Positions 23,622 to 41,137 of a stretch of DNA of 64,000 nt are shown one piece after another. The notes below the pieces were generated by a model that was not told where the DNA came from, searched no databases, and saw only the letters and a list, made by a program, of their open reading frames with translations. The stretch lies in the NCBI GenBank assembly GCA_965221025.1, contig CBDCRJ010000001.1, positions 197,850-261,849 on the forward strand. The letters are read 5' to 3'. How positions within the stretch are numbered: position 1 is the stretch's first letter; each line of letters starts with the position of its first letter. The position numbers were made by a program, and so were the translations under genes. The stretch is from Dehalococcoidia bacterium (GTDB taxonomy: Bacteria > Chloroflexota > Dehalococcoidia > Lucifugimonadales > UBA3495).

Positions 23622-23658
23622 GAGGCCCCTGCTGTAACGGCGGGGGCCTCTGGTTTGT
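23622..23658 (+). terminator. Intrinsic-terminator-like hairpin (module A)
   Basis: gaggcccctgctg / cggcgggggcctc stem (about 13 bp with wobbles), followed by tggtttgt. Conserved in all three full modules. Confidence 0.5.
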
Positions 23659-23874: not shown

Positions 23875-24157
23875 CTTACGTCCGGCTTGGAAGCTCACTA
23901 CGATTTACGTTGGCGAGGGCTGCTTTTCGAGCGGCCAGCCTTGTCATGGGCGCCGAAAACCCAGGCAATCATCCGACGTTGGGCGAGAGGAGCGATGACC
24001 AGTACCGATAGACGAGGAATCCCAATCCTCGACGGAGCAGAGACATCCGTCGCAGCAGCCCGCGTTGCCGTGGTCTCCGCGACCCGGTCCGCCCCCCATT
24101 CGATGAAAGGTCAACCGAAGAGGAGTTAGCAAGGTTCCACTTAGGGAAGTTAAGGAC

Positions 24158-27100
24158 GTGAAAGCAATGTCGAAGTCAATCATTGGTCTGGTGCTGAGCA
24201 TCGCGGTTCTCGCCATCCTGCTAATCGGGTGTTCCGATGAGCCAGAGCCCATTCCTTCAAACGGGGCCGATTCCAGCACCACCGCCCCATCGGAGCAGGG
24301 GGTCAATCCTGAGCCAACACATGCTCCCACATCGGCTGTGACAAACACCGACGCATCAGAAGCTGCAATTCCCACACCTGCCGCTCTCCCGACCGCCACT
24401 GCAACGCCCGCAGCCACGGCGACTCCGTTACCCACTGCCATGCCAAGGCCGCAGCCGACTCCCAAGCCCACGACGACACCGGCACCAACATCCGCCGCAT
24501 CAGAAGCTGCAATTCCCACACCTGCCGCTCTCCCGACCGCCACTGCAACGCCCGCAGCCACGGCGACTCCGTTACCCACTGCCATGCCAAGGCCGCAGCC
24601 GACTCCCAAGCCCACGACGACACCGGCACCAACATCCGCACCGACACCTACTCCTACACCAACGCCGACACTAACGCCAACGCCGGAACCCACTCCTGCG
24701 CCGACGCTCACACCAACGCCGACACTAACGCCAACGCCGGAACCCACTCCTGCGCCGACGCCCCTCCCAAGGGCCACGACGATTACGCTGACACCCGGAA
24801 TGGCGATGCTGGAGGCCCCGGACGAGACGGCTCACCTGGCGGTGGTGGTCCGCGACCAGAACGGCCGGGTCATGACCGGAGTACCGGTGACGTGGGCCAG
24901 CAGCGACGAGCGGACTGCTCAGGTGGATGCAGAGGGCCGGGTCATGGCCGTTGCCGGGGGGTCAGCGACGATCACCGCAAGGGCAGGCGAGGCGTCGGGG
25001 ACCTCCCAGGTCATGGTCGTTGACATGGATTGGGCCGCCGGTTTCGTAGCCCGCCAGCATGTGGTTGACGCTGTTACGGGCTTCTCCGGACGTGTTGACC
25101 CGGACTGCACGGCGGTGGACTGTGAACGTGCCCGGTTCCCGGGCGATGGTTCAGGCAACTTCGGGACCTTCAAGGCAGTCACCGGCATCGATCTGGCAGT
25201 GGACAGCACAGGCAGGAGTGGCCTGTCCGGGATGATCCGAAGGCGGGATGCGTTCGACTCCGGAAGGTATGCCAACGGCAAGGTGGTCCGAACCTACGCG
25301 GACATAGAGGCCGCGCACGCCGACGGCAAATTGGCCGTCATGTTCTATGTGCAGCGTCGGCCCGAGTCCTCCGACTGGCAACTGGACGGAGACGTCGCGA
25401 ACCTGCGGCGCTGGTACGACGAAGGCTTGAGAATTCTGCAGGTGTCATACGGCGATGGCCCCGAAAGGCCGGACGCGACCTCTCTCGACGAACGGCTTGG
25501 TTACGGAACTTACGGGCCCCATGAGGGGGAGGAAAAAGGAGTTACCGCTCTCGGCCGTGCCGCCATCGCCGAGATGAACGCCATGGGCATGATCGTCGAC
25601 TGCTCGCATTGCAGCAAGCAGACCACGCTGGATGCGGCAGCCCTGTCCACCAAGCCCGTTATTGCGACGCACGCCAACGCTGAGGCACTTACCCCGCGAA
25701 TACGGAACAAGGACGACGACGAGTTGCGTGCCATCGCCGGCACGGGAGGCGTAATCGGGGTTACGTGCATCCGGTGGATGCTCGACACGGACGGCGACGG
25801 GAAAGCGGGTATGTCCGACATGATCGCCCACATTGAGTACATAGCGGAACTCGTGGGCATAGACCACGTGGGAATCTCCTCCGACTCGGACGTGAATGGA
25901 TGGCCGCAGGAATCGGTGCACTATGCGGACGCCGACATTGCCGCTCCGGACCGCTGGGTGCGGCTCACCGCCCAACTCCGCGCTAGGGGTTGGAGCGAGG
26001 AGGACCTGGCAAAGCTGCTGGGCGGCAATTTCCTGAGGGTCTTCGCCGAGGTGCTCCCCACAAGAGGCGCGAAGGGCAGGGAACCGGAATCTATGCCCCC
26101 TAACTTCAAGGTAGCCTTCATTGGGGACCAGGGGCTAGGCCGTGGTTCTGGGGCGGTCTTGGAAATGATACGAGAGGAAGGGGCGGATATGGTGCTGCAC
26201 TCGGGCGATTTCGACTATGACGACGACCCCGACCGCTGGGACCAACAAATCAATGAAACCCTCGGTGATGACTTTCCTTACTTCGCTTCCATCGGCAATC
26301 ACGATGTTCCTGCCTGGGAAGGTTACCAGAGGAAGTTACAGGAGAGGTTGGCTCGAATCAGCGGGGCCCGTTGCACAGGCGATCTGGGAGTAAATTCCTT
26401 CTGCACATTTGAGGGGTTGTTCTTTGTGCTTTCCGGCGTAGGCACCATTGACTCGGGCCGCGTCTCCTTCATAAGTGAAGCCCTTGGGTCCGAGGAGGCA
26501 AAGGAGTCCCTCTGGCGAATCTGCTCATGGCACAAGAACCAGAGGCTGATGCAAGTCGGGGGAAAGAAAGATTCGGTCGGATGGGAGCCTTACGAAGAGT
26601 GCCGGAAGGGCGGGGCGATCATAGCTACGGGCCACGAGCATTCTTATTCACGCACACACCTAATGGATAGTTTTCGGACCCAGAGCATCGCTTCCAAGTC
26701 GGCCGTCTTGAACGTTGACAATGGAAAGAGCTTTGCCTTTGTCTCCGGTCTTGCGGGACGCAGCATCAGAGGTCAGGACGATCAGCTCGCCGCCAAACCC
26801 TGGTGGGCGGCGGTGCATACTTCGGCGCAGGGAGCAAATCATGGCGCGTTGTTTTGCGTCCTCAACCACGAAGGAGTTGAAAATCGAGGATATTGCTACT
26901 TCAAAGACTTGAATGAAGTCAATCCCGACGCGTTTGGGGTCATTGTGGGGCCGACTGCTGAAATTCCTGAGGCATCATCATTCGTGCCGACGGCGAGTCC
27001 GAAGCGGGAGGTGGAGTACGACTATATCATAGAGTTGCCGGACGACTGGATCCAGAAAGGCGAGGACAGGTACAGCAGCCCCTCGCCCCGAGTCTCGATA

Positions 27101-27466
27101 ATTATTACATCTCACAGGTTCGGAGGTGACATTGACCAGTACATCCAACAGGTGCAAGACAATCTGAAAGAGGACTGGGAGGACTGGTGGTTTACGACTT
27201 CACTATTCGAGACCACTTCCGTAGATAGGGAAATTACGGACGAACAGACGACAATCCGTATGCGGTACCGGGTGCAGGAGGCCGAATACTGTGTCCTTGA
27301 CGTTGTCGATGTCGTGCTGGTATCCCAAATCGTTCCGGGAGACCCGCAGGTATTTAGAATACGGGCGTGGATGTGCGAGCGAAACGTTGCCAGCCGTGGC
27401 CAGATGAGGGATGACGTACTGAACAGTTTTGAGGTGATAACTAGGCCCATAAACGGCGGAAGTTAA
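24158..27466 (+). CDS. Multidomain lipoprotein A: PT-rich linker, Big_2, M19 (renal-type) dipeptidase, metallophosphoesterase, C-terminal unknown domain
   Basis: Lipobox LLIGC. Big_2-like [46 protein letters not shown]. Dipeptidase [32 protein letters not shown]. Phosphoesterase [32 protein letters not shown] 24167 is the likelier start (AAGGA upstream). Confidence 0.85.
24353..24640 (+). repeat. Near-perfect 144-bp tandem duplication inside the PT linker
   Basis: Unit gcatcagaagctgcaattccc...aacatccgc at 24353 and 24497 (48 aa each). Only the last base differs by my reading. Confidence 0.9.
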
Positions 27467-27567
27467 TTTTTCCGTGCGGGCGGGTAGCCGCTGACATTGG
27501 GTGGACGCAAATTGGGCCACCCGCCGCCTTACGTAAGGCTGACTACCAGCAACGGCGGGTGAGACGG

Positions 27568-27639
27568 ATGTATCCGGTGGAACTGTACACACGGGCTCGT
27601 CGGGCAGTGATGGTGGAGGGGATGAGCCATCGGAAAGCG
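27568..27639 (+). pseudogene. Possible transposase N-terminal HTH remnant
   Basis: [24 protein letters not shown] resembles the Y..ElR.RAV..V.eG.S.RkaA start of IS630/IS3-type transposase HTH domains. No continuation of a transposase follows. Confidence 0.3.
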
Positions 27640-27765
27640 CACCGCAGCAGAGACATCCGTGGCAGCGGCCCGTGTTGCCGTGAGCTCCGCGCCCCGGTCC
27701 GCCTCCCATTCGACAAAGGTCAAGTGATGAGAGCTAGCAGGATTCAACTCAGGGAAGTTGAGGAC

Positions 27766-30069
27766 GTGAGGGCGATTTCGAAGTCAATCATTGGTCTGCT
27801 GGTGAGCGCCGCAGTGATCGCCATCCTGCTAACCGGGTGTTCCGATGAGCCAAGCCCCGCGCCTTCGGCCGGGATTCTTTCTGGCTCCACGGCCACACCG
27901 ACGCCCACTGCCGCGCCAACTCCTACACGCACGCTGACACCCACACCCGCATCTACGCCCGTTCCTACGGTAACACTCACCGCAACCCCAACACCGACGC
28001 CCACTGCCGTGCCAACTCCTACACGCACGCCGACACCCACACCCACACCCACAGTGGACCCCACCCCTACGCCAACGGTGACCATAACCCCCATCGGCCG
28101 CGGGATTTCCGTCACCTCAGAGGCCACACCGACGCCCACTGCCGCGCCAACTCCTACACGCACGCTGACACCCACAGCCGCACCGTTGACGCCTACGCCC
28201 ACTGCCGTGCCAACCCCAACGCCGATTCCCACTCCAACACCTGCACCGACGACCGCACCCGCGCTGACACCCACAGCCGCACCGTTGACGCCTACGCCCA
28301 CTGCCGTGCCAACCCCAACGCCGATTCCCACTCCAACACCCGCGCCGACGACGGTCGCGGTGGTGCCGGCCACGGCCGAACTGACCGCCCTGGGCGCGAC
28401 CGTGCAACTCAATGCCGAGGTGCGTGACCAAGACAGCAGGGCGATGGCGGGCGCCACGGTTTCCTGGTCGAGCAGCGCCGTCACCGTGGCAGCAGTGGAT
28501 GCGGCCGGTGTCGTGACAGTGGCGGGCAACGGCACGGCGACGATCACCGCTTCGGCCGGGTCGGCATCAGGGACCGCGGTGGTGACGGTGACGCAGGAGG
28601 TGGCCTCAGTGGAGGTGTCGCCGTCCGTGACCGAGCTGGCCGCGTGGGGCGAGACCGTTCAGCTGACGGCGGAGGCGCTCGACGCGAACGGGCATGCGGT
28701 GACGGGAACCGAATTCTCATGGCAGTCCTCTGACCCCCTGGTGGCGGAGGTGGATGCTCTTGGTGTGGTGTCCGGGATTAGCGAAGGGGTGGCGACGATC
28801 ACGGCGAGCGCGGGCGCTGCGTTGGGGTCTGCAGCAGTAACGGTGCCACCCACGTTCACTCTATCTGGCACAGTACGTGACAGCCGGGAAAACGGCCCAA
28901 ATTTGGTAGGCGCCGTCGTGCGCCTGGAAAACGGCAAACGGGAATCCGTGGTCATCGGCCCCGACGGGCGGTACAGCTTCCCGAGCGTCCGGGGGACGGT
29001 CACGGTTAGGGCCATCGCCGGGCCCACCCATGTAACCGAGACAGTTGAGATTACGGTGGACGAAGACCGCACGCTAGACTTCGATCTCGAACACACGGGC
29101 GAGCCGCCGTCTCGGGGAACAGCGTTAGACTATCCGCGAATCATCGAGCCTTCCGATCCCAGCACGTTGCAAAGCATTACGTATGCGGGTCGCGGCGAGC
29201 GTCTGGTCTATGATCGGCGGCCCGACATGTGGATTACTATCAATGCCTACCTGTTCGATGTACGGTACGAAGACGCGGAGCTTGAGTTTCAGGTCAACCC
29301 GGAATTCGGGAGCAGGGAGGCCGCGCGGACGGAAGTCGACACGTATGCGGCCGCGTTGGGCCAGTTGCCCGCAGTTCTCCTGTCGACAGTCCAAGAAGTG
29401 GAGATCAATGCTGGCTATGAGCTGTTCGGGGGCAACGGATCCGAAAGGAGTGTCAGCATCCACACAGATTACGGTAAGGAGTACATCCGTGACGGTGATT
29501 TGGAGGAGGTTCTCGTGCATGAAGCCACGCATGCCTCACTGGACCCGGCTCACAAGGACTCCCCCGGCTGGCGTGCGGCGCAGGCGGCCGACGGCGTATT
29601 CATTTCGACGTATGCCCGCGACTTTCCGGTCCGGGAGGATGTCGCAGAGAGCTTCCTGGTATGGTTCGCCGTGCGGTATCAGCCAGAGCGGCTGACCCGC
29701 TCAGAGCGAGCTGTGATTCTGAGGACAATGCCGAATCGCCTGATCTACTTTGACGAGCAGGGATTCGACATGTCGCCCTACACACCATCGGAGATCCAGG
29801 AGCCCTCCGGTGAAATCGTCACCATTCAGGGCAAGGTGATCGGGCCGAACAGCCAGCCGTTGGGAGGGATATTGCTGTGGGCATGGTCTGGAAGCGTTGA
29901 TAGCAGCGCACATACCACGACCGGGGAGGACGGCTCCTTTGCCATAGTAGTCCCCGATGGTTCCTACACCTTGGACGTATACGCCCCCGGCGAGGGATGC
30001 AATTTCGTAGGATGGCACGGCCAGGGGGATTCACCGCAGAACGGGGAGACGCAACCCGCATTGAGGTAG
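27766..30069 (+). CDS. Multidomain lipoprotein B: PT linkers, Big_2 domains, CarboxypepD_reg-like domains, HExxH metalloprotease-like domain
   Basis: GTG 27766 sits at the same position as the GTG of the paralogues. Lipobox LLTGC. At least two clear Big_2 repeats ([11 protein letters not shown]..., [11 protein letters not shown]...), plus [26 protein letters not shown] and [11 protein letters not shown]. The ORF-track start at 27559 would bury the signal peptide. Confidence 0.8.
28167..28364 (+). repeat. 99-bp tandem duplication in the PT linker of lipoprotein B
   Basis: gacacccacagccgcaccgttgacgcc... occurs at 28167 and 28266 (33 aa units, [27 protein letters not shown]). Confidence 0.85.
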
Positions 30070-30515
30070 ACGGTGGAAGTGTCTTAGACATCGTAATACG
30101 GCTTCCGGACCACCCGCAGGCCTTGCCTCGCATTGAGCATTGCGCCTGACCGAGTTTACTCGGCACCCGAGGCCACGTCTGCTGCGGAAGGTGGGACATG
30201 CAGTCTGTCTTGCTGTCCATGTTCTTCCGTCAACCACGAGTACAGGGCCTCGGTAGGCTCATAGACTCCCCACCCACAGTTCGAGGCGGGTTCTGTCAGA
30301 TCATTACTAGAGATAGTATCGTCGTTCGCAGAATGCCCAGCCACATCTCGAATATGGTGCCATCTACCGTCCACTCAGGCCCACCAGACTTGATAAAATC
30401 AAGAACTTTCACCCTGCGGGTCAGGTTGGTGCTGTAACCGACGCCTGCCTTGCCCCGGCGTCGGCCCGCCGGGAAACGGCAAATCAGGCCGACAGGTAAC
30501 GTACCAGGCAGCGAC

Positions 30516-30552
30516 GAGGCCCCTGCTGTAACCGCGGGGGCCTCTGGTTTGT
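30516..30552 (+). terminator. Intrinsic-terminator-like hairpin (module C)
   Basis: gaggcccc...ggggcctc followed by tggtttgt. Lies about 450 nt downstream of the lipoprotein B stop. Confidence 0.5.
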
Positions 30553-30733
30553 CTCAGACCGCCGCAGCCATTCCTACACTCACACCCACGCCCCACCCGC
30601 TCCCCGCCACTCCCCGACCGTCAGCCGATGGGAGTCCCGTCGAGCGTCCCAGTCGCTTCCTGAACACGCTGGGCTGAGACCTGCCGCGACATAGGCATAG
30701 GCGCTTTGTAGCCATTTACCCATGCAATTCCTG

Positions 30734-30778
30734 TAGACAAATGTCTAGATAAATGTCTAGTGCAATGTAGACGTTTGC
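30734..30778. promoter_or_regulatory. TAGACAAATGTCTA palindrome region (module C)
   Basis: tagacaaatgtcta at 30734-30747, then gataaatgtctag and tgcaatgtagacgtttgc. Confidence 0.5.
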
Positions 30779-31054
30779 TCCTTATATCCGGCCTGGAGGT
30801 TCACTACGATTTATATTGGCGAGGGTTGCTTTTCGGGCGGCAAGCCTTGTCATGGGCGCCGAGAAGTCCAGGCAATCATACGACGTTGGGTGAGAGGAGC
30901 GATGACTCGCACCGGTAGACGAGGAATCTCAATCCGCGACGGAATAGAGACAGCCGTGGCAGCGGCCACGAGGCCGCCCTCCACACGACGGGCACATCCG
31001 GTCTGTGACAGGTCACGGGATGGCGGGCTGACAAGTTTCGTTTAAGGAAGGGAC

Positions 31055-34051
31055 GTGAAAGCAATGTCGAAGTCCATCATTGGACTGCTGTTAGGCATCG
31101 CAGTACTCGCCGTACTGCTAACCGGGTGTTCTGATGAGCCAGATCCCATTCCTTCAAACGGGACCGATTCCAGTCCCACCACCTCATCGGAGCAGGGGGG
31201 CAATCCGGAGCCAACACATGCTCCCACATCGGCTCTGACAAACACCGACGCCTCAGAAGCGGCAACGCCCACACCTGCCGCTCTCCCAGCTACCTCGGCA
31301 ATGCCCACAGCCACGGCGACTGCCGCCGCACTGGGGAACGGGTCCGCCGGGGAGTTCGCCTCGGTCAGCGCCGGTGGGGCCCACAGCTGCGGGGTGAGGC
31401 GCGACGGCTCCGTCGAATGCTGGGGCTGGGACAAACATGGCCAGGCCACGCCGCCGTCCGGGGAGTTCGCCTCGGTCAGCGCCGGGTTTGGCCACAACTG
31501 CGGGGTGAGGACCGACGGCTCCGTCGAATGCTGGGGATTCAACAGAGATATTGGTATCGGTATCGAGGTTGGCGAGGCCGCCCTGCCGTCCGGGGAGTTC
31601 GCCTCGGTCAGCGCCGGGTACTACCACACCTGCGGGGTGAGGACCGGCGGCTCCGTCGAATGCTGGGGCAATGATGCCGCCGGCCGGGCTAGGCCGCCGG
31701 CCGGGAAGTTCGCCTCCGTCAGCGCCGGGGGGAACCACACCTGCGGAGTGAGGAGCGACGGCTCGGCCGCATGCTGGGGTTCCAACAAGGATGAGTACGG
31801 CGATGTTGTTGGCCAGGCCACGCCGCCGTCCGGGGAGTTCGCCTCAGTCAGCGCCGGAAGGTTCCACACCTGCGGGGTGAGGACCGACGGCGCCGTCGAA
31901 TGCTGGGGGCGGAATAAGGATGGCCAGGCCACGCCGCTGTCCGGGGAGTTCGCCTCGGTCAGCGCCGGAAGGTTCCACACCTGCGGGGTGAGGACCGACG
32001 GCTCTGTCCAATGCTGGGGGTCCAATGAAGGCGCCTTTGGAAGGGAGTTTGGCCAGGCCACGCCGCCGTCCGGGGAGTTCGCCTCCGTCAGCGCCGGGGG
32101 GCTCCACACCTGCGGGGTGAGGACCGACGGCTCCACGGTATGCTGGGGCGATGATGAATATGGCCAGGCCACGCCGCCCGGAGGTTCCTTCGCCTCGGTC
32201 AGCACCGGGTGGTTCCACACATGCGGGGTGAGGACCGATGGCGCCGTCGAATGCTGGGCCTCTGATTTCTCGGGTCAGGCCACGCCGCCGTCCGGGGAGT
32301 TCGCCTCGGTCAGCGCCGGGTATTTGCACACCTGCGGGGTGAGGACCGACGGCTCTGTCGAATGCTGGGGGTCCAACGAAGACCTTGATGGAAACGAGAT
32401 TGGCCAAGCCACGCCGCCCGGAGGTTCCTTCGCCTCGCTCAGCGCCGGAGGGTACCACACCTGCGGCGTGAAGCTCGATGGCTCTCTCGAATGCTGGGGC
32501 GCCAACGTAGATAGCCGTGGAAACGAGGTTGGCCAGGCAACACCCCCTGCCGGGGAGTTCGCCTCCGTCAGCGCCGGAGACGACCACACCTGCGGGGTGA
32601 GGACCGACGGCGCCGTCGAGTGCTGGGGCTCCAACGAGGATCCGGACGGCAATGTTCTTGGTCAGGCCACTCCACCGCCGGGGGAGTTCGCCTCAGTCAG
32701 CGCCGGAGGGTACCACAGCTGCGGGGTGAGGGCCGACGGCTCCGTCGAATGTTGGGGGGCCAACGAAGATCGCTACGGAAACGAGGTTGGCCAGGCAACA
32801 CCCCCTGCAGGGGAGTTCGCCTCGGTCAGCGCCGGAGGGTACCACACCTGCGGGATGAGGGCCGACGGCCCTGTCCAATGCTGGGGGTCCAACGAAGGCG
32901 CCTTTGGAAGGGAGTTTGGCCAGGCCACGCCGCCGTCCGGGGAGTTCGCCTCCGTCAGCGCCGGGTGGAACCACACCTGCGGGGTGAGGTGGGACGGCTC
33001 CGTCGCGTGCTGGGGTGAACAGGCCCGCGGGCTGACGGCTCAGCAAGTGGCCGAAGGTCATCCCACGGCCGAAGTTCAGCCGACCGCCGAACCGGAGAAA
33101 TTCGCCATCCCGACGGCCACGCCCACAGCCACAGCGACTGCCGCCGCACCAAAGACGAGGTCCGCCGGGGAGTTCGCCTCGGTCAGCGCCGAAGGATTCC
33201 ACACCTGCGGGGTGAGGACCGACGGCTCCGTCGAATGCTGGGGAGCCAATAATGTTGGTCAAGCCACCCCGCCGGCGGGGGAGTTCGCCTCGGTCAGCGC
33301 CGGGTTTGGCCACAACTGCGGGGTGAGGACCGACGGCTCCGTCGAATGCTGGGGACTCAACGAGGATCCGGACGGCAATGTTGTTGGTCAAGCCACCCCG
33401 CCGTCGGGGGAGTTCGCCTCGGTCAGCGCCGGGTTTATCCACACCTGCGGGGTGAGGGCCGACGGCTCTGCCGAATGCTGGGGATCCAACGAGGATTCGG
33501 ACGGCAATGTTGTTGGCCAGGCCACGCCGCCGTCCGGGGAGTTCGCCTTGATGAGCGCAGGGGGGTACCACACCTGCGGGGTGAGGCGAGACGGCTCCGC
33601 CGAATGCTGGGGATCCAACGAGGATTCGGACGGCAATGTTGTTGGCCAGGCCACGCCGCCATCCGGGGAGTTCGTCTCGGTCAGCGCCGGGACTCTCCAC
33701 ACATGCGGGGTGAGGCGAGACGGCGCCGTTGAGTGCTGGGGCTTCAACGAGGATGGGGGCGGCAATGTTCTTGGCCAGGCCACGCCGCCGTCTGGGGAGT
33801 TCGTCTCGGTCAGCGCCGGGACTCTCCACACCTGCGGGGTGAGGACCGACGGCGCCGTCGAATGCTGGGGCTCCAATGATGATTTTGGCGGCAATGTTGT
33901 TGGTCAAGCCACTCCACCGCCGGGGGAGTTCGCTTCGGTCAGCGCCGGGTGGCTCCACACCTGCGGGGTAAGGACCGACGGCGTCGTCGAATGCTGGGGG
34001 GCCAACGAGAGTTGGGCAGGCAGTAATGTTGGTCAGGCCACTCCGCCCTAG
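31055..34051 (+). CDS. Lipoprotein C with 21 RCC1-like blades (14 + linker + 7)
   Basis: Lipobox LLTGC. 21 units of the form GQATPPSGEFASVSAGxxHTCGVRxDGSVECWG. The internal PT linker follows CWGEQARGLTA. Ends exactly at a unit boundary (GQATPP*). Confidence 0.85.
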   Translation: MKAMSKSIIGLLLGIAVLAVLLTGCSDEPDPIPSNGTDSSPTTSSEQGGNPEPTHAPTSALTNTDASEAATPTPAALPATSAMPTATATAAALGNGSAGEFASVSAGGAHSCGVRRDGSVECWGWDKHGQATPPSGEFASVSAGFGHNCGVRTDGSVECWGFNRDIGIGIEVGEAALPSGEFASVSAGYYHTCGVRTGGSVECWGNDAAGRARPPAGKFASVSAGGNHTCGVRSDGSAACWGSNKDEYGDVVGQATPPSGEFASVSAGRFHTCGVRTDGAVECWGRNKDGQATPLSGEFASVSAGRFHTCGVRTDGSVQCWGSNEGAFGREFGQATPPSGEFASVSAGGLHTCGVRTDGSTVCWGDDEYGQATPPGGSFASVSTGWFHTCGVRTDGAVECWASDFSGQATPPSGEFASVSAGYLHTCGVRTDGSVECWGSNEDLDGNEIGQATPPGGSFASLSAGGYHTCGVKLDGSLECWGANVDSRGNEVGQATPPAGEFASVSAGDDHTCGVRTDGAVECWGSNEDPDGNVLGQATPPPGEFASVSAGGYHSCGVRADGSVECWGANEDRYGNEVGQATPPAGEFASVSAGGYHTCGMRADGPVQCWGSNEGAFGREFGQATPPSGEFASVSAGWNHTCGVRWDGSVACWGEQARGLTAQQVAEGHPTAEVQPTAEPEKFAIPTATPTATATAAAPKTRSAGEFASVSAEGFHTCGVRTDGSVECWGANNVGQATPPAGEFASVSAGFGHNCGVRTDGSVECWGLNEDPDGNVVGQATPPSGEFASVSAGFIHTCGVRADGSAECWGSNEDSDGNVVGQATPPSGEFALMSAGGYHTCGVRRDGSAECWGSNEDSDGNVVGQATPPSGEFVSVSAGTLHTCGVRRDGAVECWGFNEDGGGNVLGQATPPSGEFVSVSAGTLHTCGVRTDGAVECWGSNDDFGGNVVGQATPPPGEFASVSAGWLHTCGVRTDGVVECWGANESWAGSNVGQATPP

Positions 34052-34064
34052 CGGGAGGGCATAG

Positions 34065-35048
34065 ATGTCGAAGCCAGTTATTGGTCTTTTGGGTCTGTAC
34101 GCGGGACTACTTGCCATACTTGTCTCCGGATGTACGTCGTTTCCCTCTCCCGAAGGTTCGTCTTACGGTACTGAGGATCCAGCAGGGATCGTTTCAGGTC
34201 CCACCCGAACACCACCTTCCAGTCCACCCAGAAGGCCTCCCCACTCCATTTCAGTGGTCGACAGGACCTCTAGCTCGTTGACAGTCGCATGGGCTGCTCC
34301 TGCCCCTAGTGCGACCTTATACGAGTTGCATCGAAGCTCTTCCGAGCGTGGCGACTATTCCGTCGTGGCCTCTGACATAGCGTCTGCCAAATTTGTGGAC
34401 CAGAATCTCGAGCCGGAAAGCGTCTACTACTACGTGGTCAGAGCGTGTAACAAGCTCGGCTGTTCAGATGCGTCAGACGAGATAGCGGCCGGAGTCACGG
34501 AGTCCGCCAGTGCAGTCAATGCCCCAGAAACCCCGCCATTCATTGAATCCATGAGGAAAGGGTTAAGTTGGACGGGAGTGAAGGGAGCAACCTACTATGA
34601 AGTGTATGGAGGCGGGAACCTATTGGCCACGGTGAGTGCGCCTAAGACGCGTAGCGCGCATGGCGCGGGTCAAACTGACTTTCTGGGCCTTTTTGATCTT
34701 TCCGGGAGCAGCGGCGGTTACCAGGTTAGGGCCTGCAACAAGGCAGGGTGTTCTGCTGGGACCGAGACGTCTTACCGTAGCCCACTTGATATTTCATTAC
34801 CTGAGATGATGGCAGGTGTCTGCGAACACGGGCTGATACTGAAGCCAGGAGAGGCATGCCAGCTTAAGGACGACGACACTATCGCACACGTTAAGGCCGA
34901 CGCAAATGGCTTTGGCGAACACGCCATTTGCGTCGGAACAGTCTCTGAGCGCCTTCGGTGTGACAATTGGGGGGCGCAGATCAATGAAGGGCTGTTCGCG
35001 TCGCAATCGGAATCCGGGAAGGAGTGGGTGGTCATAAGAATCAGATAG
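34065..35048 (+). CDS. Lipoprotein with FN3-like domains
   Basis: Signal MSKPVIGLLGLYAGLLAILVSGC. SLTVAWAAP...YELHRSS...YYYVVRACNKLGCS and a second YQVRACNKAGCS are FN3-like. Confidence 0.7.
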   Translation: MSKPVIGLLGLYAGLLAILVSGCTSFPSPEGSSYGTEDPAGIVSGPTRTPPSSPPRRPPHSISVVDRTSSSLTVAWAAPAPSATLYELHRSSSERGDYSVVASDIASAKFVDQNLEPESVYYYVVRACNKLGCSDASDEIAAGVTESASAVNAPETPPFIESMRKGLSWTGVKGATYYEVYGGGNLLATVSAPKTRSAHGAGQTDFLGLFDLSGSSGGYQVRACNKAGCSAGTETSYRSPLDISLPEMMAGVCEHGLILKPGEACQLKDDDTIAHVKADANGFGEHAICVGTVSERLRCDNWGAQINEGLFASQSESGKEWVVIRIR

Positions 35049-35053
35049 GACGG

Positions 35054-35170
35054 GTTTCTCTCGCCTCGGTTGACGCTGGCCATTCGCACACCTGCGGGGT
35101 GAGGGGCGACGGCTCCGTCGCCTGTTGGGGTACATATGCCCGCGGGGTGACCGCACCGCCGGGGGGATGA
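35054..35170 (+). pseudogene. Orphan 3' fragment of an RCC1-repeat gene
   Basis: Translates to VSLASVDAGHSHTCGVRGDGSVACWGTYARGVTAPPGG*. This matches the propeller-terminating CWG.QARGLTA motif of genes C and E. There is no start codon or signal peptide. Confidence 0.55.
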
Positions 35171-35311
35171 CGGAGATGACCAATCCAAGTATCGTATTTG
35201 TCGTTTGCTCCGTACGATTTACGCTGGCGAGGGCTGCTTTTCGAGCGGCAAGCCTTGTCATGGGCGTCGATAATCCCAGGCAAACATACGACGTTGGGCG
35301 AGAGGTGCGAA

Positions 35312-35587
35312 ATGTCAAAGTCCATCGCAAGCAGTGTGCTGCTCGCGGGCGCGATATTCCTCGCCATACTCATGCCCGGATGTTCCGATGAGCCGACCCC
35401 TTCACCGGTGACCAAGATTCTTCCTAGCTCCACTGCCACACCTACACCCACTGCCGTACCAACACCAACGCCGACTGCCACTCTAACACCCGCGCCGACG
35501 ACGGTCGCGGTGGCGCCGGCCGTGGCCTCCATTATGAGCCGCAGACAGCCCCTCATGACAGGGCAAGGCATAGACAAATGCCTATAG
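35312..35587 (+). pseudogene. Truncated lipoprotein stub (signal peptide + PT linker only)
   Basis: MSKSIASSVLLAGAIFLAILMPGCSDEPTPSP...TTVAVAPAVAS is collinear with the 5' end of lipoprotein B up to the first Big_2 domain, then diverges and stops. A partial upstream module precedes it. Confidence 0.5.
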
Positions 35588-35590
35588 ACA
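35571..35590. promoter_or_regulatory. TAGACAAATGCCTA-TAGACA variant site
   Basis: One mismatch to the module palindrome. Lies between the stub and the histidine kinase gene. Confidence 0.4.
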
Positions 35591-35799
35591 CTATGGTTGA
35601 TACGCCCTTGCTGCCTTCTTCTCATTGGACTAAATTCTAAGCAAATAGATGAGCGCTGGACGGGTATTTCCACCTGGCCGGTTTGCCTACTTAGACCCTC
35701 TCATTTCGAGGCCGAGCCACCGCTCCGGGCAGAGGGGCATATCGCATTCCAGCCGCGATCTGCCGTAATCCAACCTGACGGAGACGAGTCCTGAATCCA

Positions 35800-37017
35800 G
35801 TGAGAACAGCGGCCCACGCGCTTCCAGCCTTCCTGCGGAGCTTCGACCTGCCGGAGCCGGGCGAGCTGCGCCGCGTGGCCAGGGTCTATGTCTGGGGACG
35901 CTGGTTCGTGTTGTCTATTGCCACCTTCGCCTGGCTGTACCCGCTCAATGTCGACGAGGTGGTGTACGCGCCGAACGTCGCCCTTGCAATCCTTCTGTTC
36001 GCCACCAACGGATACCTGCACTACCGGCTCGCCACGGAGAGGACCGTGTCCTGGCGGTGGATGCTCGCGCTGAGCGCCCTGGACCTGGCGATGCTGAGCG
36101 GCGGCGTTGCGGCCCACCGGGGGTACGAGTCCCCCTTCTTCGTGGGGTACTACCCGTCCCTCGCCATGTTCGCCGTGGTCTTCGGGTCGGTCAGGCTCAC
36201 CCTCGCCTGGGTCACGATGGCGGCGGCCGTCTACGCAGCGCTCTGCCTCGCGGTCGAGCCCGGGGTGGACTTCTCAGCCAATGACGAGGAGATACTGCTC
36301 ATAAGGGTTGCCGGGATGTACACGGTGGTGGTCGTCGTCAACCTGATCTCCAGGGTGGAGCGCATACGGAGGATGGAGGCGGTGGAGAGGGAGCGGGCGC
36401 TTCAGAGGGAGCGCATCGAGCTCTCCCACGCCATCCACAACACGATGGCCCAGTCCGCCTACCTGATCGGGGTGGGCATCGAGAGGGCGAAGGAGCTTGC
36501 CGACAGGTCGAACGAGGAGCTGATGTCCACGCTCGAAGAGACCTCGGCCCTGTCGAGGTCTGCGATGTGGGAGATGAGGCACCCGATGGAGATCGGGGAG
36601 ATCTTCGAGGGGATGGAGCTTGGCGGGGTGCTGGAGTCGCTGGCGGCGACCTTCTCGACCATCTCCTCCATACCCGCCGAGATGGTGCAGTCGGGCGTCG
36701 AGCCGCCCCTGCCAATCGCAACGCGGGGCGCGCTGTTCTCCATCGCCTTCAACGCCCTGACCAACGCGCTCCGCCACTCCCATGCGAGTCACGTCCGCGT
36801 CGGCCTGGACTTCGAGCGCGACGGCCTGCGGATGTCGATTGCCGACGACGGTACCGGCCTCCCCGACGACTACGCCACGCGCGGCCAGGGCTTCAGGAAC
36901 ATGAGGGAGGACGCCGAGCGTCTGGGCGGCAGGCTCGTCGTGGAGACGAGCGGGTCCGGGTGGAGCACCGCGGTGACCTGCGAGCTTCCCTACAGGCATA
37001 TGAGAGGAGGGAGCTGA
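35800..37017 (+). CDS. Sensor histidine kinase (HisKA_3/NarX-LiaS type), polytopic N-terminus
   Basis: About five hydrophobic segments, then RIELSHAIHNTMAQSAY (H-box), NALRHSHAS (N-box), DDGTGL and GQGFRNMREDAERLGGRL. GTG start. Confidence 0.85.
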   Translation: MRTAAHALPAFLRSFDLPEPGELRRVARVYVWGRWFVLSIATFAWLYPLNVDEVVYAPNVALAILLFATNGYLHYRLATERTVSWRWMLALSALDLAMLSGGVAAHRGYESPFFVGYYPSLAMFAVVFGSVRLTLAWVTMAAAVYAALCLAVEPGVDFSANDEEILLIRVAGMYTVVVVVNLISRVERIRRMEAVERERALQRERIELSHAIHNTMAQSAYLIGVGIERAKELADRSNEELMSTLEETSALSRSAMWEMRHPMEIGEIFEGMELGGVLESLAATFSTISSIPAEMVQSGVEPPLPIATRGALFSIAFNALTNALRHSHASHVRVGLDFERDGLRMSIADDGTGLPDDYATRGQGFRNMREDAERLGGRLVVETSGSGWSTAVTCELPYRHMRGGS

Positions 37018-37018
37018 A

Positions 37019-37684
37019 ATGGCTTCGACACCGACCAGAGTATTGCTGGTGGATGACCACCCGGTGATGCGCGACGGTCTCCAGCAGTTGCTGGAGCGGA
37101 CCGGCGAGTTCGAGGTGGTGGGACACGCCGGAGACGGCGAGGAGGCGGAGCGGGTGGCGAAGGAGGTTGTCCCGGACCTCATCATCATGGACGTGCTGAT
37201 GCCGGGCAGGGACGGGATAGATGCGTGCCGGGAGATCATAGACGCGCTGGAGGACGTCAGGGTGCTCATGCTGACCGCTTCCACCGAGAAGGACGCCGTC
37301 ATAGAGGCGGTGGCCGCCGGCGCCGACGGATACCTTCAGAAGTTCACCGGGACGGAGCAGCTGTTGGCCATGGTCAGGGACGTAGCCCGAGGCGAATACC
37401 GGATGCCGCGTGACGTGATGAGACGGGTGTTCAGGCGGCTGCGCCACCTGCCGGAGGATATCGATTCGCCACGGCGGAAGGAGCTGACATCGAGGGAGAA
37501 GGAGATACTCGCACAGTTCGCGCAGGGGATGTCGTACGCCGCCATCGCCGAGTCCAGGGGCAACCGCTCTTCGACGGTCCGCAACACCATCTACCACATA
37601 CAGGACAAGCTGGGATTCGGCAGCAAGCAGGAGATCGTCGTCTGGGCCGTGCGAAACGGGCTGGTGGACCGAGAGCTCGGCTGA
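37019..37684 (+). CDS. Response regulator, NarL/FixJ family (REC + LuxR-type HTH)
   Basis: VLLVDDHPVMRDGL, DLIIMDVLMPGRDG and LTSREKEILAQFAQGMSYAAIAESRGNRSSTVRNTIYHIQDKLG. Confidence 0.9.
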   Translation: MASTPTRVLLVDDHPVMRDGLQQLLERTGEFEVVGHAGDGEEAERVAKEVVPDLIIMDVLMPGRDGIDACREIIDALEDVRVLMLTASTEKDAVIEAVAAGADGYLQKFTGTEQLLAMVRDVARGEYRMPRDVMRRVFRRLRHLPEDIDSPRRKELTSREKEILAQFAQGMSYAAIAESRGNRSSTVRNTIYHIQDKLGFGSKQEIVVWAVRNGLVDRELG

Positions 37685-37854
37685 GTTTCTCCCGCACCAA
37701 CTCCCCATGACTCGATAGCGCCTCCACCGCCCGCCCAACGTCTCACGGCAAGGCAGACCCGCAGCGTTCGCGCCGCAATCCTCCTGCCTTGCCCCGCCGT
37801 CGGCCCGCCGGGAACCGACGGAGCAGGCCGACAGATAACGTACCTGGCATCTAC

Positions 37855-37891
37855 GAGGCCCCTGCTGTAACGGCGGGGGCCTCCGGCTTGT
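37855..37891 (+). terminator. Intrinsic-terminator-like hairpin (module E)
   Basis: gaggcccc...ggggcctc followed by cggcttgtt. Lies 170 nt downstream of the response regulator stop. Confidence 0.45.
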
Positions 37892-38070
37892 TCCAGACCG
37901 CCGCAGCGATTCCGACAGTCATTCCCACGTCCCGCGCGCTCCCGGCCATTTCCCGGCCTTCAGCCAATGGGAGTCCCGTTGAGCGTCCACGCCGCTTCCT
38001 GAACACGCTGGGCTGAGACCTGCCGCGACATGGGCATAGGCCCCTGAGGGCATTTGCCTACGAATCTCTA

Positions 38071-38116
38071 TAGACAAATGTCTAGATAAATGCCTAGAGC
38101 AAAATAGACATTTGCT
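38071..38116. promoter_or_regulatory. TAGACAAATGTCTA palindrome region (module E)
   Basis: tagacaaatgtcta at 38071-38084. agcaaa-atagaca-tttgct at 38098-38116 keeps the inverted repeat through paired changes relative to module A (gtgcaaa/tttgcac). Confidence 0.55.
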
Positions 38117-38402
38117 CCTTATATCCGGCTTGGAGGCTCGCTACGATTTATGTTGACGATGGCTGCTTTTCGGGCGGCAAGCCTTGTCATGGGCCACGAA
38201 AAATCCAGGCAAGCATGCGACGTTAGGAAAGAGGAGCAATGACCCGCACCGGTAGACGAGGAAGGCCAATCCTCGACGGAGCAGAGACGGCGGTCGCAGC
38301 GGCCCGTGTTGCCGTTAGCTCCGCGGCCCGGTCCGCTTTCCGTTACATGACAAGGTCAAGTGATGAGGAGCCAACAAGCATCAAGTTAGGGAAGTTAAGG
38401 AC

Positions 38403-40529
38403 GTGAAAGCAATGTCGAAGTCAATCATTGGTCTGGTGCTGAGCATCGCGGTTCTCGCCATCCTGCTAACCGGGTGTTCCGATGAGGCAGATCCCAATCC
38501 TTCGAACGGGACCGATTCTAGCACCACTACCTCATCGGAGCAGGGGGGCAATCCTGAGCCAACACATGCTCCCACATCGGCTGTGACAAACACCGCCGCA
38601 CCGGAAGCGGCAACTCCCACACCTGCCGCTCTCCCGACCGCCACGGCAACGCCCGCAGCCACGGCGACTGCCGCCGCACCGGAAGCGGCAACTCCCACAC
38701 CTGCCGCTCTCCCGACCGCCACTGCAACGCCCACAGCCACAGCGACTTCCGCCGCACCGGAAGCGGCAACTCCCACACCTGCCGCTCTCCCGACCGCCAC
38801 GGCAACGCCCGCAGCCACGGCGACTGCCGCCGCACCGGAAGCGGCAACTCCCACACCTGCCGCTCTCCCGACCGCCACTGCAACGCCCACAGCCACAGCG
38901 ACTTCCGCCGCACCAAAGACGAGGTCCGCCGAGGAATTCGCCTCGATCAGCGCCGGAAGGCTCCACACCTGCGGGATGAGGACCGACGGCTCCGTCGCCT
39001 GCTGGGGCGATGATGATGATGGCCAGGCCACGCCGCCGTCGGGAGAGTTCGCCTCGGTCAGTGCCGGGGGCTGGCACACCTGCGGGGTGAGGACCGACGG
39101 CTCCGTCGCCTGCTGGGGCCCTGACGGTCATGGCCAGGCCACGCCGCCGTCCGGGGAGTTCGCCTCGGTCAGCGCCGGATGGTTCCACACCTGCGGGGTG
39201 ATGATAGACGGCGCCGTCGAATGCTGGGGACTCAACGAGGATGGCCAGGCCACGCCGCCGTCCGGGGAGTTCGCCTCGGTCAGCGCCGGGGGGCGCCACA
39301 CCTGCGGGGTGAGGGCCGACGGCTCCGTCGAGTGTTGGGGCTCCAACATGGACAATATACAGGGCGGTGTTCTTGGTCAGGCCACGCCGCCGTCCGGGGA
39401 GTTCGCCTCGGTCAGCGCCGGATGGTTCCACACCTGCGGGGTGATGATAGACGGCGCCGTCGAATGCTGGGGACTCAACGAGGATGGCCAGGCCACGCCG
39501 CCGTCCGGGGAGTTCGCCTCGGTCAGCGCCGGGTATTGGCACACCTGCGGGGTGAGGCCCGACGGCGCCGTCGAATGCTGGGGCTTCAACGAGGATGAGG
39601 ACGGCAATGTTCTTGGTCAGGCCACGCCGCCGTCCGGGGAGTTCGCGTCGGTCAGCGCCGGAGGGGGCCACACCTGCGGGGTGAGGCCCGACGGCGCCGT
39701 CGAGTGCTGGGGCTATGATGACTATGGCCAGGCCACGCCGCCGTCCGGGGAGTTCGCGTCGGTCAGCGCCGGGGGCCGGCACACCTGCGGGGTGAGGACC
39801 GACGGCTCCGTCGCCTGCTGGGGATTCAACGAGGATGGCCAGGCCACCCCGCCGTCCGGAGAGTTCGCCTCGGTCAGCGCCGGAGGGGGCCACACTTGCG
39901 GCGTGAGGCGCGATAGCTCCGTAGCCTGTTGGGGCAGCGATAGGTTGGGCCAGGCCACGCCGCCGTCGGGAGAGTTCGCCTCGGTCAGCGCCGGAGAAAG
40001 GGCCCACGCTTGCGGCGTGAGGCGCGATAGCTCCGTAGCCTGTTGGGGCAATGATGATTATGGCCAGGCCACGCCGCCGTCGGGAGAGTTCGCCTCGGTC
40101 AGCGCCGGGGCGGTCCACACCTGCGGGGTGAGGACCGACGGCTCCGTCGCCTGCTGGGGATTCAACCGGGATGGCCAGGCCACCCCGCCGTCCGGGGAGT
40201 TCGCCTCGGTCAGCGCCGGAGGGACCCACACCTGCGGGGTGAGGACCGACGGAGCGGTCGTATGCTGGGGTAATGATGGCCGTGGCCAGGCCACGCCGCC
40301 GTCCGGGGAGTTCGCCTCGGTCAGCGCCGGGAGCACATACACCTGCGGGGTGAGGCGGGACGGCTCTGTAGCCTGCTGGGGCTATGATGATGATGGCCGG
40401 GCCACGCCGCCGTCGGGAGAGTTCGCCTCGGTCAGCGCCGGGTCTGGCCACACCTGCGGAGTGAAGGCCGACGGCGGCGTGGTCTGCTGGGGACGACAGG
40501 CCCGCGGGTTGACCGCACCTGCGGAGTGA
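38403..40529 (+). CDS. Lipoprotein E with 14 RCC1-like blades
   Basis: Signal peptide almost identical to A ([25 protein letters not shown]). A 4 x 78-bp PT/AT repeat lies at 38595-38906. 14 HTCGV...CWG blades. Ends CWGRQARGLTAPAE*. Confidence 0.85.
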   Translation: MKAMSKSIIGLVLSIAVLAILLTGCSDEADPNPSNGTDSSTTTSSEQGGNPEPTHAPTSAVTNTAAPEAATPTPAALPTATATPAATATAAAPEAATPTPAALPTATATPTATATSAAPEAATPTPAALPTATATPAATATAAAPEAATPTPAALPTATATPTATATSAAPKTRSAEEFASISAGRLHTCGMRTDGSVACWGDDDDGQATPPSGEFASVSAGGWHTCGVRTDGSVACWGPDGHGQATPPSGEFASVSAGWFHTCGVMIDGAVECWGLNEDGQATPPSGEFASVSAGGRHTCGVRADGSVECWGSNMDNIQGGVLGQATPPSGEFASVSAGWFHTCGVMIDGAVECWGLNEDGQATPPSGEFASVSAGYWHTCGVRPDGAVECWGFNEDEDGNVLGQATPPSGEFASVSAGGGHTCGVRPDGAVECWGYDDYGQATPPSGEFASVSAGGRHTCGVRTDGSVACWGFNEDGQATPPSGEFASVSAGGGHTCGVRRDSSVACWGSDRLGQATPPSGEFASVSAGERAHACGVRRDSSVACWGNDDYGQATPPSGEFASVSAGAVHTCGVRTDGSVACWGFNRDGQATPPSGEFASVSAGGTHTCGVRTDGAVVCWGNDGRGQATPPSGEFASVSAGSTYTCGVRRDGSVACWGYDDDGRATPPSGEFASVSAGSGHTCGVKADGGVVCWGRQARGLTAPAE
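38595..38906 (+). repeat. Four tandem 78-bp units (two alternating variants) in the linker of lipoprotein E
   Basis: gccgcaccggaagcggcaactcccacacctgccgctctcccgaccgcc... repeats with period 78. Confidence 0.85.
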
Positions 40530-41137
40530 AGGCCGAAGCAGTGCAAGTAGAGTTCATTTCGGTCAGCGCCGGGTGGCTCCACACCTGCGGGGTGAGGACC
40601 GACGGCTCCATAGCCTGCTGGGGCAGTGATTTCGGCGGCCTGGCCCGGCCGCCGTCCGGAGAGTTCGCCTCGGTCAGCGCCGGCGAGGAGCACACCTGCG
40701 GGGTGATGATAGACGGCGCCGTCGAATGCTGGGGTGATGATGAATACGGCAAGGCCACGCCGCCGTCCGGGGAGTTCGCCTCCGTCAGCGCCGGATACAG
40801 CCACACCTGCGGGGTGAGGACCGACGGCTCCGTCCAATGCTGGGGCTCCAACAAGGATTGGAGGGACGATGTTGTTGGTCAAGCCACGCCACCGTCGGGG
40901 GAGTTCGCCTCCGTCAGCGCCAGCGAAGAGCACACCTGCGGGGTGAGGACCGACGGCTCAGTAGAATGCTGGGGCAACAACCGTGATGGGCGGGGCATTT
41001 TTGTTGGCCAGGCCACGCCGCCGTCTGGGGAGTTCGCCTCGGTCAGTGTCGGGGTCAGACACACCTGCGGGGTAAGGACCGACGGCGTCGTCGAATGCTG
41101 GGGCAGTGATGGGTATGGCCAAGCCACGCCGCCCTAA
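40526..41137 (+). CDS. RCC1-like repeat protein (5 blades, no signal peptide); possibly the frameshifted continuation of gene E
   Basis: GTG 40526 overlaps the TGA of gene E (GTGA). A 20-nt duplication at the junction changes frame. Ends GQATPP* like gene C. Confidence 0.6.
   Translation: MKAEAVQVEFISVSAGWLHTCGVRTDGSIACWGSDFGGLARPPSGEFASVSAGEEHTCGVMIDGAVECWGDDEYGKATPPSGEFASVSAGYSHTCGVRTDGSVQCWGSNKDWRDDVVGQATPPSGEFASVSASEEHTCGVRTDGSVECWGNNRDGRGIFVGQATPPSGEFASVSVGVRHTCGVRTDGVVECWGSDGYGQATPP

Follow-up and report, generated by a model that had tools for sequence, protein, structure and literature searches.

We have analyzed a cluster of lipoprotein genes in a 64,000-nt stretch of a Dehalococcoidia bacterium genome (GenBank assembly GCA_965221025.1, contig CBDCRJ010000001.1), which is called the window here and is numbered from its first letter. 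Six open reading frames (ORFs), each with a lipobox and a linker, lie within 38 kb of DNA (14.9-52.8 kb) that consists of tandem modules at a tRNA-Val gene; the modules are bounded by copies of the core sequence GCCCAC, and defence systems are carried among them. Our reading, to which we give a probability of about 0.7, is that the lipoprotein modules reside on recombinase-bounded islands and are swapped by site-specific as well as homologous recombination. It is built on the anatomy of the locus, its attachment (att) sites, the precise breakpoints, the chimeric genes and the mosaic identity seen in related strains and species. Related loci came from a head profile search (15 loci in 13 species-representative genomes named 'MAG: Dehalococcoidia bacterium', a MAG being a metagenome-assembled genome) and from long metagenome contigs in ENA; where they must be told apart they are given L numbers. 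A search for head proteins matched 17 proteins (P0001-P0017), all of them short (57-153 aa). It missed long proteins, those of the window included, and is therefore of no use as a census.

The six ORFs are genes A, B, C and E, an fn3 gene and a stub (Table 1). Gene A consists of a type 1 lipoprotein head, a linker rich in proline and threonine (PT) with tandem repeats, and then a Big_2 domain, an M19 dipeptidase and a metallophosphoesterase. The start of gene B is probably a GTG, because the canonical ATG reads ATT here. Genes C and E are dominated by RCC1 blades, and E is followed by E'; the RCC1_2 stretches of C, E and E' (21, 14 and 5 matches) have Pfam E-values of 1e-42 to 1e-142. C and E+E' are whole-gene paralogues, with 14 blades, a linker and then 7 or 5 blades. 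The stub (ORF 35312-35587, 91 codons) is cut where the Big_2 domain of B would begin. In all six translations a lipobox (LLTGC, LVSGC or LMPGC) is followed by a PT-rich linker encoded by tandem DNA repeats. Inspected by eye, the six translations have the properties of signal peptidase II substrates, namely a positive charge in the n-region, a core that is hydrophobic and a lipobox of the form [LVI][ASTVI][GAS]C; the lipobox reads LLTGC in B, LVSGC in the fn3 gene and LMPGC, with an atypical P at -2, in the stub. Lipobox and long linkers together suggest a membrane anchor with the payload held off the membrane, on a PT-rich linker that is probably extended.

Over their first 243 nt the heads of A, C and E are 87-93% identical in nucleotides and 80-86% in amino acids, with E-values of ~1e-40 that exclude chance. 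B resembles these heads only over its first ~30 residues (73% aa). The signal peptides of the fn3 gene and the stub, at 45-56% aa identity, belong to other head classes, that of the stub being the 'type 2' class widespread in relatives. A first-pass annotation, made from the sequence of this stretch, had described six ORFs that share one head and carry unrelated payloads, interspersed with orphan fragments. The ORF and Pfam content of all six agrees with its domain assignments, and the heads of A and E are near-identical in DNA (93% over the 243 nt), as it had reported. The orphan fragments are there as well, in the form of an RCC1 blade behind the fn3 gene, a fragment of the repeat described below (35207-35310) and recombinase 3' remnants ending at 23543 and 30437. 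The common head itself holds for A, C and E and fails for the other three, since B shares the signal peptide and lipobox only, and the fn3 gene and the stub have heads of their own.

The tandem DNA repeats of the PT linkers are near-perfect and measure ~143 nt (24341-24639), ~97 nt (28157-28352) and ~78 nt (38593-38914). The counterpart of A in L012, a 99.5% identical gene, differs by a copy of the linker repeat and has a linker shorter by 66 aa, so stalk length differs between strains. Between E and E' the reading frame changes within the inter-propeller linker (40526-40529). L019 and L022 have the same change, and its identity in two independent assemblies means that it is real and not a sequencing error; the linker of C is uninterrupted at that place. 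A frame change also separates the 3' end of B (~30000-30069) from the corresponding end in L012 (~17250-17357). The L012 version ends ...HCA before its stop codon, and this longer ending is still legible in another frame of the window.

Comparison of the window with itself by BLAST yielded a DNA repeat of ~1 kb at 23441-24427, 30336-31325 and 37783-38829, 83-84% identical between copies. The repetition that the first-pass annotation had seen in the heads is thus confirmed, but it is not limited to them: ~680 nt of each ~1-kb unit precede the start codon. The upstream parts of the three units are 78-81% identical in global alignment, and smaller pieces of the unit precede B (27643-27857) and the stub. 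Read 5' to 3', the unit opens with the tRNA 3' end GCCCAC(CA) and a 21-nt half-site, which form the att part. The final ~18 codons and the stop of a large-serine-recombinase ORF that reads across the att site come next, followed by a terminator-like hairpin, a conserved leader of ~500 nt, and the signal peptide with the first linker segment. In relatives we found 33 non-identical copies of the unit, the most conserved core of which is at unit positions 100-460. Since the conserved unit starts at an att site and a recombinase tail, we regard it as the arm next to the att site in a family of integrative modules.

The att core is the 3' end of the tRNA-Val gene, GCCCAC(CA), at 14895-14902 (attL). 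The sequence GCCCAC stands at 14895, 23485, 30379, 48280 and 52759. The final 8 nt of the tRNA together with their flank (14895-14927) are repeated at 23485 and 30379, where no repeat is expected by chance, and a 28-nt att motif occurs three times in the window against an expectation of 0. The P' half-site that follows the tRNA recurs as a motif at 23490 and 30384. Its first copy is the perfect reverse complement of 48257-48277 (GGTTCTTGATTTCGTCAAGTC), a P half-site that is contained in the 3' end of the intact recombinase gene of the window and is followed there by the att core at 48280-48285. The last core, 52759-52764, is joined to the host flank CAACTTTC..., which in L024 comes after another island. 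The arrangement in the window, in which inverted half-sites surround a short core and each end of the insert has a hybrid site, is the att architecture of serine recombinases. The intact large serine recombinase of L020 reads across the att motif and ends ...VKSGPPDLIKSRTFTLRVRLVL before its stop codon; units A and C of the window are preceded by a tail of this type only, the rest of the gene being gone. L020 and L025 encode intact relatives of the recombinase. At the start of a unit in L022 stands a real tRNA-Lys, directly before unit and gene C. There is no transfer-messenger RNA (tmRNA) gene within the window, the targets being tRNA-Val in the window and tRNA-Lys in L022, and no tyrosine integrase was found among the window ORFs scanned.

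The chain of modules starts with M1, which contains an OLD-family ATPase/nuclease (15096-17180, minus strand), a 314-aa ORF and a type II cyclic-oligonucleotide-based antiphage signalling system (CBASS, 18329-23283). M2 comprises unit A, gene A and gene B. M3 comprises, in this order, unit C, gene C, the fn3 gene, the fragments, a histidine kinase and response regulator, unit E, E, E', a Replic_Relax gene and the recombinase. M5 extends from there to the last att core.

Comparison with closely related genomes places exchanges of these modules exactly at the core GCCCAC. Across M2, the chromosome-level MAG L012 (OZ244824.1) shares 99.3-99.6% identity with the window. On the left, the similarity begins at 23484; beyond it, in place of CBASS, L012 has genes for a methyltransferase, Vsr and Dcm. 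On the right, identity is 100% to 30382 and ~76% from 30383 on, and in place of C the L012 genome has a different variant of the half-site, a type 2 unit and a gene with leucine-rich repeat (LRR), HExxH and CARDB features. Homologous recombination at unit position ~555 was considered for the difference at C and rejected, as the breakpoint in the identity profile coincides with the att core. L024 and L025 agree with the window through the host flank as far as 14900/14902 and then carry other islands. At its tRNA-Val site (13116-16488) L024 has a 3.4-kb module with SIR2 and DUF87 (HerA-like) genes; that of L025 (5324-13040) is taken up by an element with a serine recombinase encoded on the opposite strand, together with an M78 peptidase/helix-turn-helix (HTH) pair, Replic_Relax and a TraG-like coupling protein. 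M1 was found in three different contexts: in L029 it is 99.9% identical from core to core and preceded by a recombinase remnant rather than a tRNA, and in L028 it has a different module on its right. M3 is found at tRNA-Lys elsewhere. One side of each junction at the core is unrelated DNA, and the events were therefore site-specific and not homologous.

Other exchanges have taken place within modules. At the position of B, L012 has two genes, B1 and B2. B1 has the head of B and a different HEIGH protein, and B2 has its own signal peptide and the Big_2...HExxH body; the B gene of the window consists of the B1 head and the B2 body, joined in the PT linker at 27948-28228. Gene C is a second chimera. 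Upstream of the fn3 gene, L020, L021 and L023 have an RCC1 gene for 1532 aa, which is split into 381 and 1152 aa in L018, and in all four of these contigs it is preceded by genes for a membrane protein (142 aa) and an RCC1 lipoprotein (348 aa). C of the window is the 1532-aa protein minus its first propeller, the distal two propellers being joined to the head at 31296 through an ATATAAA linker. The backbone of M3 around it (31296-37759) is 96-99% identical among relatives, and an identical fn3 protein occurs on 13 contigs from 3 samples. The slot behind the response regulator is filled in five alternative ways: E+E', RCC1 plus ankyrin/fn3, LRR/HExxH, another LRR protein, or a stub with a transposase. 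In this slot L019 and L022 show 100% identity with the window from ~38126 on and only 75-93% in the distal part of unit E, a boundary inside the unit that marks the end of a conversion tract or a crossover. An att site was also sought at the junction of response regulator and unit E; only a weak resemblance was seen, and exchange at that place is attributed to homologous recombination.

Payloads vary widely in relatives. The type 1 head precedes RCC1 propellers most often, and also ankyrin repeats, HExxH with LRR, DUF3472, a domain without Pfam match and the Big_2/M19 body of A, while the type 2 head precedes HExxH, LRR and CARDB proteins; HExxH proteins without a Pfam match are among these payloads. 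In pairs from different species the bodies are 94-99% identical, the heads 85-97% and the upstream units 84-93%. For example, L004 and L009 agree to 97.8% in the body against 84.3% upstream, and L012 and L017 to 99.4% in the body against 96.3% in the head. Thus different payloads do occur behind the same or similar heads, and breakpoints between head and payload can be mapped directly in the two chimeras B and C, as the proposal of repeated head-to-payload recombination had implied. A static set of genes, with heads and bodies diverging in proportion, is not what the relatives have, for bodies are often far more similar across species than heads. The locus thus recombines and is not static; however, a self-contained array of heads and payloads is an incomplete picture of it, and much of the exchange replaces whole modules at the att core. 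Separately, many head-bearing ORFs of relatives (P0001-P0017; L001, L002) are stubs with 1-2 RCC1 blades and a frame-shifted ending ...TPAG, and such short stubs often adjoin transposases and toxin-antitoxin genes.

Table 1. Features of the module chain at the tRNA-Val gene, in window coordinates. A dot marks features without a strand.
Feature	Position	Strand	Content or remarks
tRNA-Val(TAC)	14826-14902	+	ARAGORN, Rfam; integration target
P' half-site GACTTGACGAAATCAAGAACC	14903-14923	+	left arm of the integrated composite element
M1	14903-23484	.	OLD + CBASS, recombinase 3' remnant at right end (Pfam, PADLOC)
internal att junction	23485-23543	+	core 23485-23490, P' arm, lost recombinase tail ...GPPDLIKSRTFTLRVRLAL (stop)
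unit A	23485-24166	+	leader with hairpin, 75-codon ORF, AAATGTCTA repeats, upstream ORF
gene A	24167-27466 (alternative GTG start 24158)	+	Pfam: Big_2 + Peptidase_M19 + Metallophos
gene B	27766-30069	+	2 Big_2 + CarboxypepD_reg + HExxH region
internal att junction	30379-30437	+	core 30379-30384, P' arm, recombinase tail remnant ...GPPDLIKSRTFTLRVRLVL (stop)
unit C	30379-31063	+	
gene C	31064-34051 (alternative start 31055)	+	type 1 head + 21 RCC1_2 matches (14 + linker + 7 blades)
fn3 lipoprotein	34065-35048	+	different head, conserved M3 backbone (Pfam)
orphan C-terminal RCC1 blade	35050-35170	+	
unit fragment + type 2 head stub	35207-35587	+	unit positions 453-555
HisKA_3 histidine kinase + LuxR/GerE response regulator	35800-37684	+	M3 backbone; candidate regulators
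unit E	37783-38411	+	att part absent; breakpoint inside at ~38066-38126
gene E	38412-40529 (alternative start 38403)	+	type 1 head, 78-nt linker repeats, 14 RCC1_2 matches
E'	40526-41137	+	5 RCC1 blades, frame differs from E
MarR-like HTH + Replic_Relax protein	41473-43185	+	M3 mobile-element backbone gene
large serine recombinase	46653-48404	+	Pfam Resolvase + Recombinase + Zn_ribbon_recom
M5	48286-52764	.	HAMP/HisKA kinase, response regulator, 518-aa ORF; ends at last att core

The leader of the unit has several recurring elements. A terminator-like hairpin (23622-23650 in unit A) comes after the stop codon of the recombinase tail. A 75-codon ORF, LPRRRPAGKRQIRPTGNVP...FLNTLG with its stop codon, is present in every unit of the window (23556-23783, 30450-30677 and 37789-38016). 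It is intact in 21 of the 33 unit copies and broken in 12; it has a third-position excess and a pN/pS (ratio of nonsynonymous to synonymous change) of ~0.6, and the complementary frame scores equally, so that its coding signal is weak. An upstream ORF (uORF) of ~44 codons (23994-24129) has a strong Shine-Dalgarno sequence, and its start coincides exactly with the start of the type 2 genes. Units C and E contain it too, as do L002, L003, L005, L008 and L019; it is conserved in several species, and in L018 (14227) it forms an in-frame fusion with the lipoprotein head. The best-conserved stretch of the unit holds AAATGTCTA repeats (TAGACAAATGTCTAG...AATAGACATTTGC), direct as well as inverted, at ~23838-23875 and at the corresponding position of units C and E. 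Their appearance is that of an operator or iteron, for which the LuxR-type regulator or the Replic_Relax/MarR protein would be candidate binders.

As to the remaining contents of the region, the type II CBASS of M1 is complete, with a SAVED-endonuclease effector, cyclase, E1-E2 and JAB proteins. Between 43.3 and 46.6 kb lie several small ORFs that neither Pfam nor PADLOC matched. The 518-aa ORF of M5 has an internal repeat (50756-51025 / 51590-51859, 83% identical), and a tandem repeat of ~69 nt lies to the right of the chain at 56287-56491.

We propose the following mechanism. Modules would accumulate in tandem at tRNA-Val, or at tRNA-Lys in another strain. At one level, site-specific recombination at GCCCAC would insert, remove and replace whole lipoprotein or defence (OLD plus CBASS) modules; most modules, having lost their own recombinase, would depend on that encoded at 46653-48404 or, in trans, on the recombinases of relatives. 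At a second level, the tandem modules would bring ~1-kb direct repeats, PT linkers and RCC1 repeats side by side, and homologous recombination among these would delete, fuse and convert genes, giving rise to new head-body joins, stubs and orphan fragments. The recombinase is presumably active today, and the unit would supply promoter and regulation to the gene behind it. The proteins are likely to be displayed on the cell surface, where the payloads may interact with a host or the environment by binding and degrading external partners. Surface enzymes, adhesins and phage-receptor decoys, the roles suggested in the first-pass annotation, would be candidate functions. We suspect a sponge or other aquatic host. 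A bolder and rather doubtful extension of the proposal is that the unit is a portable expression and display adaptor, with promoter/operator, leader, lipoprotein signal and stalk, coupled to the att site. The locus would then be an integron-like surface-protein platform, based on a serine integrase and a tRNA-derived site, whose cassettes related, probably host-associated Dehalococcoidia could exchange, stack and fuse anew. Its docking site would be one shared with anti-phage modules, and the two-component system might exert control through the AAATGTCTA repeats.

Several observations weigh against parts of this proposal. No excised circle and no empty tRNA-Val site has been observed, the site in L024 being differently occupied. 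There is no recombinase in M1, M2 or M5, and the P arms at the internal junctions are degenerate, which makes present-day mobility uncertain. Unit E and many units of relatives have no att part, so att is not required for the spread of the unit. As regards expression, a scan of unit A for sigma-70-like promoters gave no site, and Rfam searches of the whole window (gathering threshold) and of 23284-24200 (E <= 5) gave no match other than tRNA. RNAalifold and counts of compensatory changes in 22 unit copies found an invariant hairpin with almost no covariation, and hence no evidence for a structured RNA. The habitat is read only from a pipeline description and from naming style: the contigs have names of the metaMDBG type and the MAGs UUID names, like those of a sponge genome project with Dehalococcoidia MAGs, and a literature search for sample and accession numbers gave no metadata link. 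Finally, the coverage of several comparison contigs is in the range of 2-11x, and repeats can mislead assemblers.

This last point raises the question of whether the joins were made by the assembly, with repeats uniting reads from different strains. Coverage is indeed low for L028 (2x), L029 (3x) and L018 and L019 (4x), there are many broken ORFs in L028, and many head proteins in the databases are short and end in frame-shifted blades. Misjoins at repeats would not, however, produce junctions at a 6-nt core with unrelated DNA on one side. Moreover, independent assemblies from different samples (L019, L022 and the window) agree down to the split between E and E', the same features are found in the chromosome-level MAG and in contigs of 21x/22x coverage (L024 and L002), and the att architecture is biologically coherent in its inverted half-sites, tRNA end and ORF crossing. 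We therefore hold an artefact to be very improbable. An ordinary family of paralogous lipoproteins, grown by duplication and domain accretion, with heads alike by constraint and recombination of little importance, would fit the paralogy of C with E+E', as well as the roughly equal divergence of the three window units in global alignment, which gives no hint that conversion occurred very recently in this genome. Yet constraint on heads does not agree with a similarity that extends ~680 nt into non-coding DNA, nor does simple descent agree with strains that are 99-100% identical in the flanks and differ in bodies or modules at sharp breakpoints. Body identity exceeding head and upstream identity across species, and the occurrence of M1, M3 and the fn3 backbone each in several genomic contexts, likewise make this explanation very unlikely.

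Two further explanations accept recombination and give it another role. In programmed phase or antigenic variation, as in the vsp, vpma and vsa loci of Mycoplasma, a dedicated recombinase would rearrange the locus at high frequency within a clone, and a common 5' region would drive expression of one lipoprotein body out of several. The lipoprotein family with its conserved 5' untranslated region (UTR) and signal peptide, the repeat-rich bodies, and a recombinase site and gene as in vpma/vsp would all suit such a system, and the fn3-backbone variants L019 and L020 do co-occur in one sample (ERZ25072076). These variants differ in their outer flanks, though, and must therefore be different strains or locations rather than flips. 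All units and heads are in direct orientation, which makes switching by inversion impossible, and each full gene has its own leader; the enzyme is a large serine integrase whose sites flank modules of 7-18 kb rather than single genes. We think this explanation unlikely. The architecture also recalls polymorphic toxins, in which an N-terminal trafficking head delivers variable C-terminal effectors and orphan cassettes serve as replacements: conserved N-termini, variable C-termini, orphan fragments and recombination are all found here, and some payloads are hydrolases (M19, metallophosphoesterase, HExxH). Against delivery, the lipoprotein anchor keeps the protein on its producer, repeats of the interaction type (RCC1, ankyrin, LRR, fn3) make up most of the payloads, and the payloads include no toxin domain in Pfam and are followed by no small immunity gene, which renders a toxin system extremely unlikely. 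Diversity-generating retroelements, CRISPR and miniature inverted-repeat transposable elements (MITE) were dropped as candidates, there being no reverse transcriptase, and the repeats being ~1 kb long and gene-linked.

Recombinase-bounded islands that exchange lipoprotein modules can be compared with several known systems. In the accretion of cis-mobilisable elements (CIMEs), one recombinase serves a chain of att-bounded segments. The locus resembles CIME accretion arrays and, more loosely, integron arrays in that its segments vary in order and neighbourhood among strains. It differs from integrons in having no IntI tyrosine integrase, attI or attC, and its segments are multi-gene with leaders of their own. 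The two closest known systems are the ssrA islands of Dehalococcoides and the vsp/vpma loci of Mycoplasma, and the locus belongs to neither.

The ssrA genomic islands (ssrA-GIs) of Dehalococcoides are tandem islands in which the ORF of the DsiB serine recombinase overlaps the att site (McMurdie et al. 2011, PMC3146451). They share with the locus the class Dehalococcoidia, the tandem arrangement between direct repeats that copy a small stable RNA's 3' end, a large serine recombinase of ~540 aa that reads across att and has its stop codon set by the neighbouring DNA, and the presence of islands without an integrase, which were interpreted as cis-mobilisable and gathered by accretion (PMC3146451). 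The target differs, being the 3' end of tRNA-Val or tRNA-Lys here and the tmRNA gene ssrA, with a 20-bp direct repeat, there. So does the cargo, which consists of surface lipoproteins and anti-phage systems here and of reductive dehalogenases there. Of the six-gene integration module of the ssrA-GIs (DsiB, DsiA, RecF-like, ParB, Mom and an embedded tRNA-like gene), what we recognise here is a large serine recombinase, along with Replic_Relax, and the ~0.6-kb leader and lipoprotein head behind att are not described for the ssrA-GIs.

In the vsp, vpma and vsa families of M. bovis, M. agalactiae and M. pulmonis, a conserved 5' UTR and signal peptide precede unrelated or repeat-rich mature parts (PMC2268961). 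Points of likeness are the shared 5' UTR and signal peptide, a 5' region with recombination sites and a locus that includes a recombinase gene (PMC2268961). The Mycoplasma enzymes are tyrosine recombinases (Xer1, Mbr, HvsR), and inversions move a single promoter at high frequency within a clone, whereas the locus described here has a serine integrase, direct repeats and a leader for each gene, changes by modules of 7-18 kb or by deletion fusions, and has been seen to vary between strains only. With polymorphic toxin, Rhs and contact-dependent inhibition (CDI) systems (Zhang et al. 2012, PMC3482391) it shares a conserved N-terminal trafficking part, swappable C-termini, orphans and joining by recombination; it differs in having no toxin-immunity pairs, in its anchoring lipoprotein head and in its payloads, which are hydrolases and interaction repeats. 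An enrichment in sponge symbionts is reported for eukaryote-like repeat proteins (ankyrin, LRR, fn3). The ankyrin, LRR, fn3 and RCC1 payloads of the relatives resemble such proteins of sponge and other host-associated symbionts. In the literature searched, these proteins have not been described with a shared mobile leader and lipoprotein head or as cargo of att modules.

If the proposal is correct, module swaps at a 6-nt core and head-body fusions provide a concrete mechanism by which cells of an uncultured lineage would renew their surface. Surface-protein modules and defence modules (CBASS, OLD, SIR2-HerA, restriction-modification) would compete for a single tRNA docking site. Accretion of islands by serine recombinases, known from the organohalide-respiring Dehalococcoides, would be extended to other Dehalococcoidia, to other targets and to other cargo. 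Should the organisms prove to be sponge symbionts, the same process would explain the variability of eukaryote-like repeat proteins at the strain level. The att sites and the recombinase could also be turned into a genetic tool, which this group lacks.

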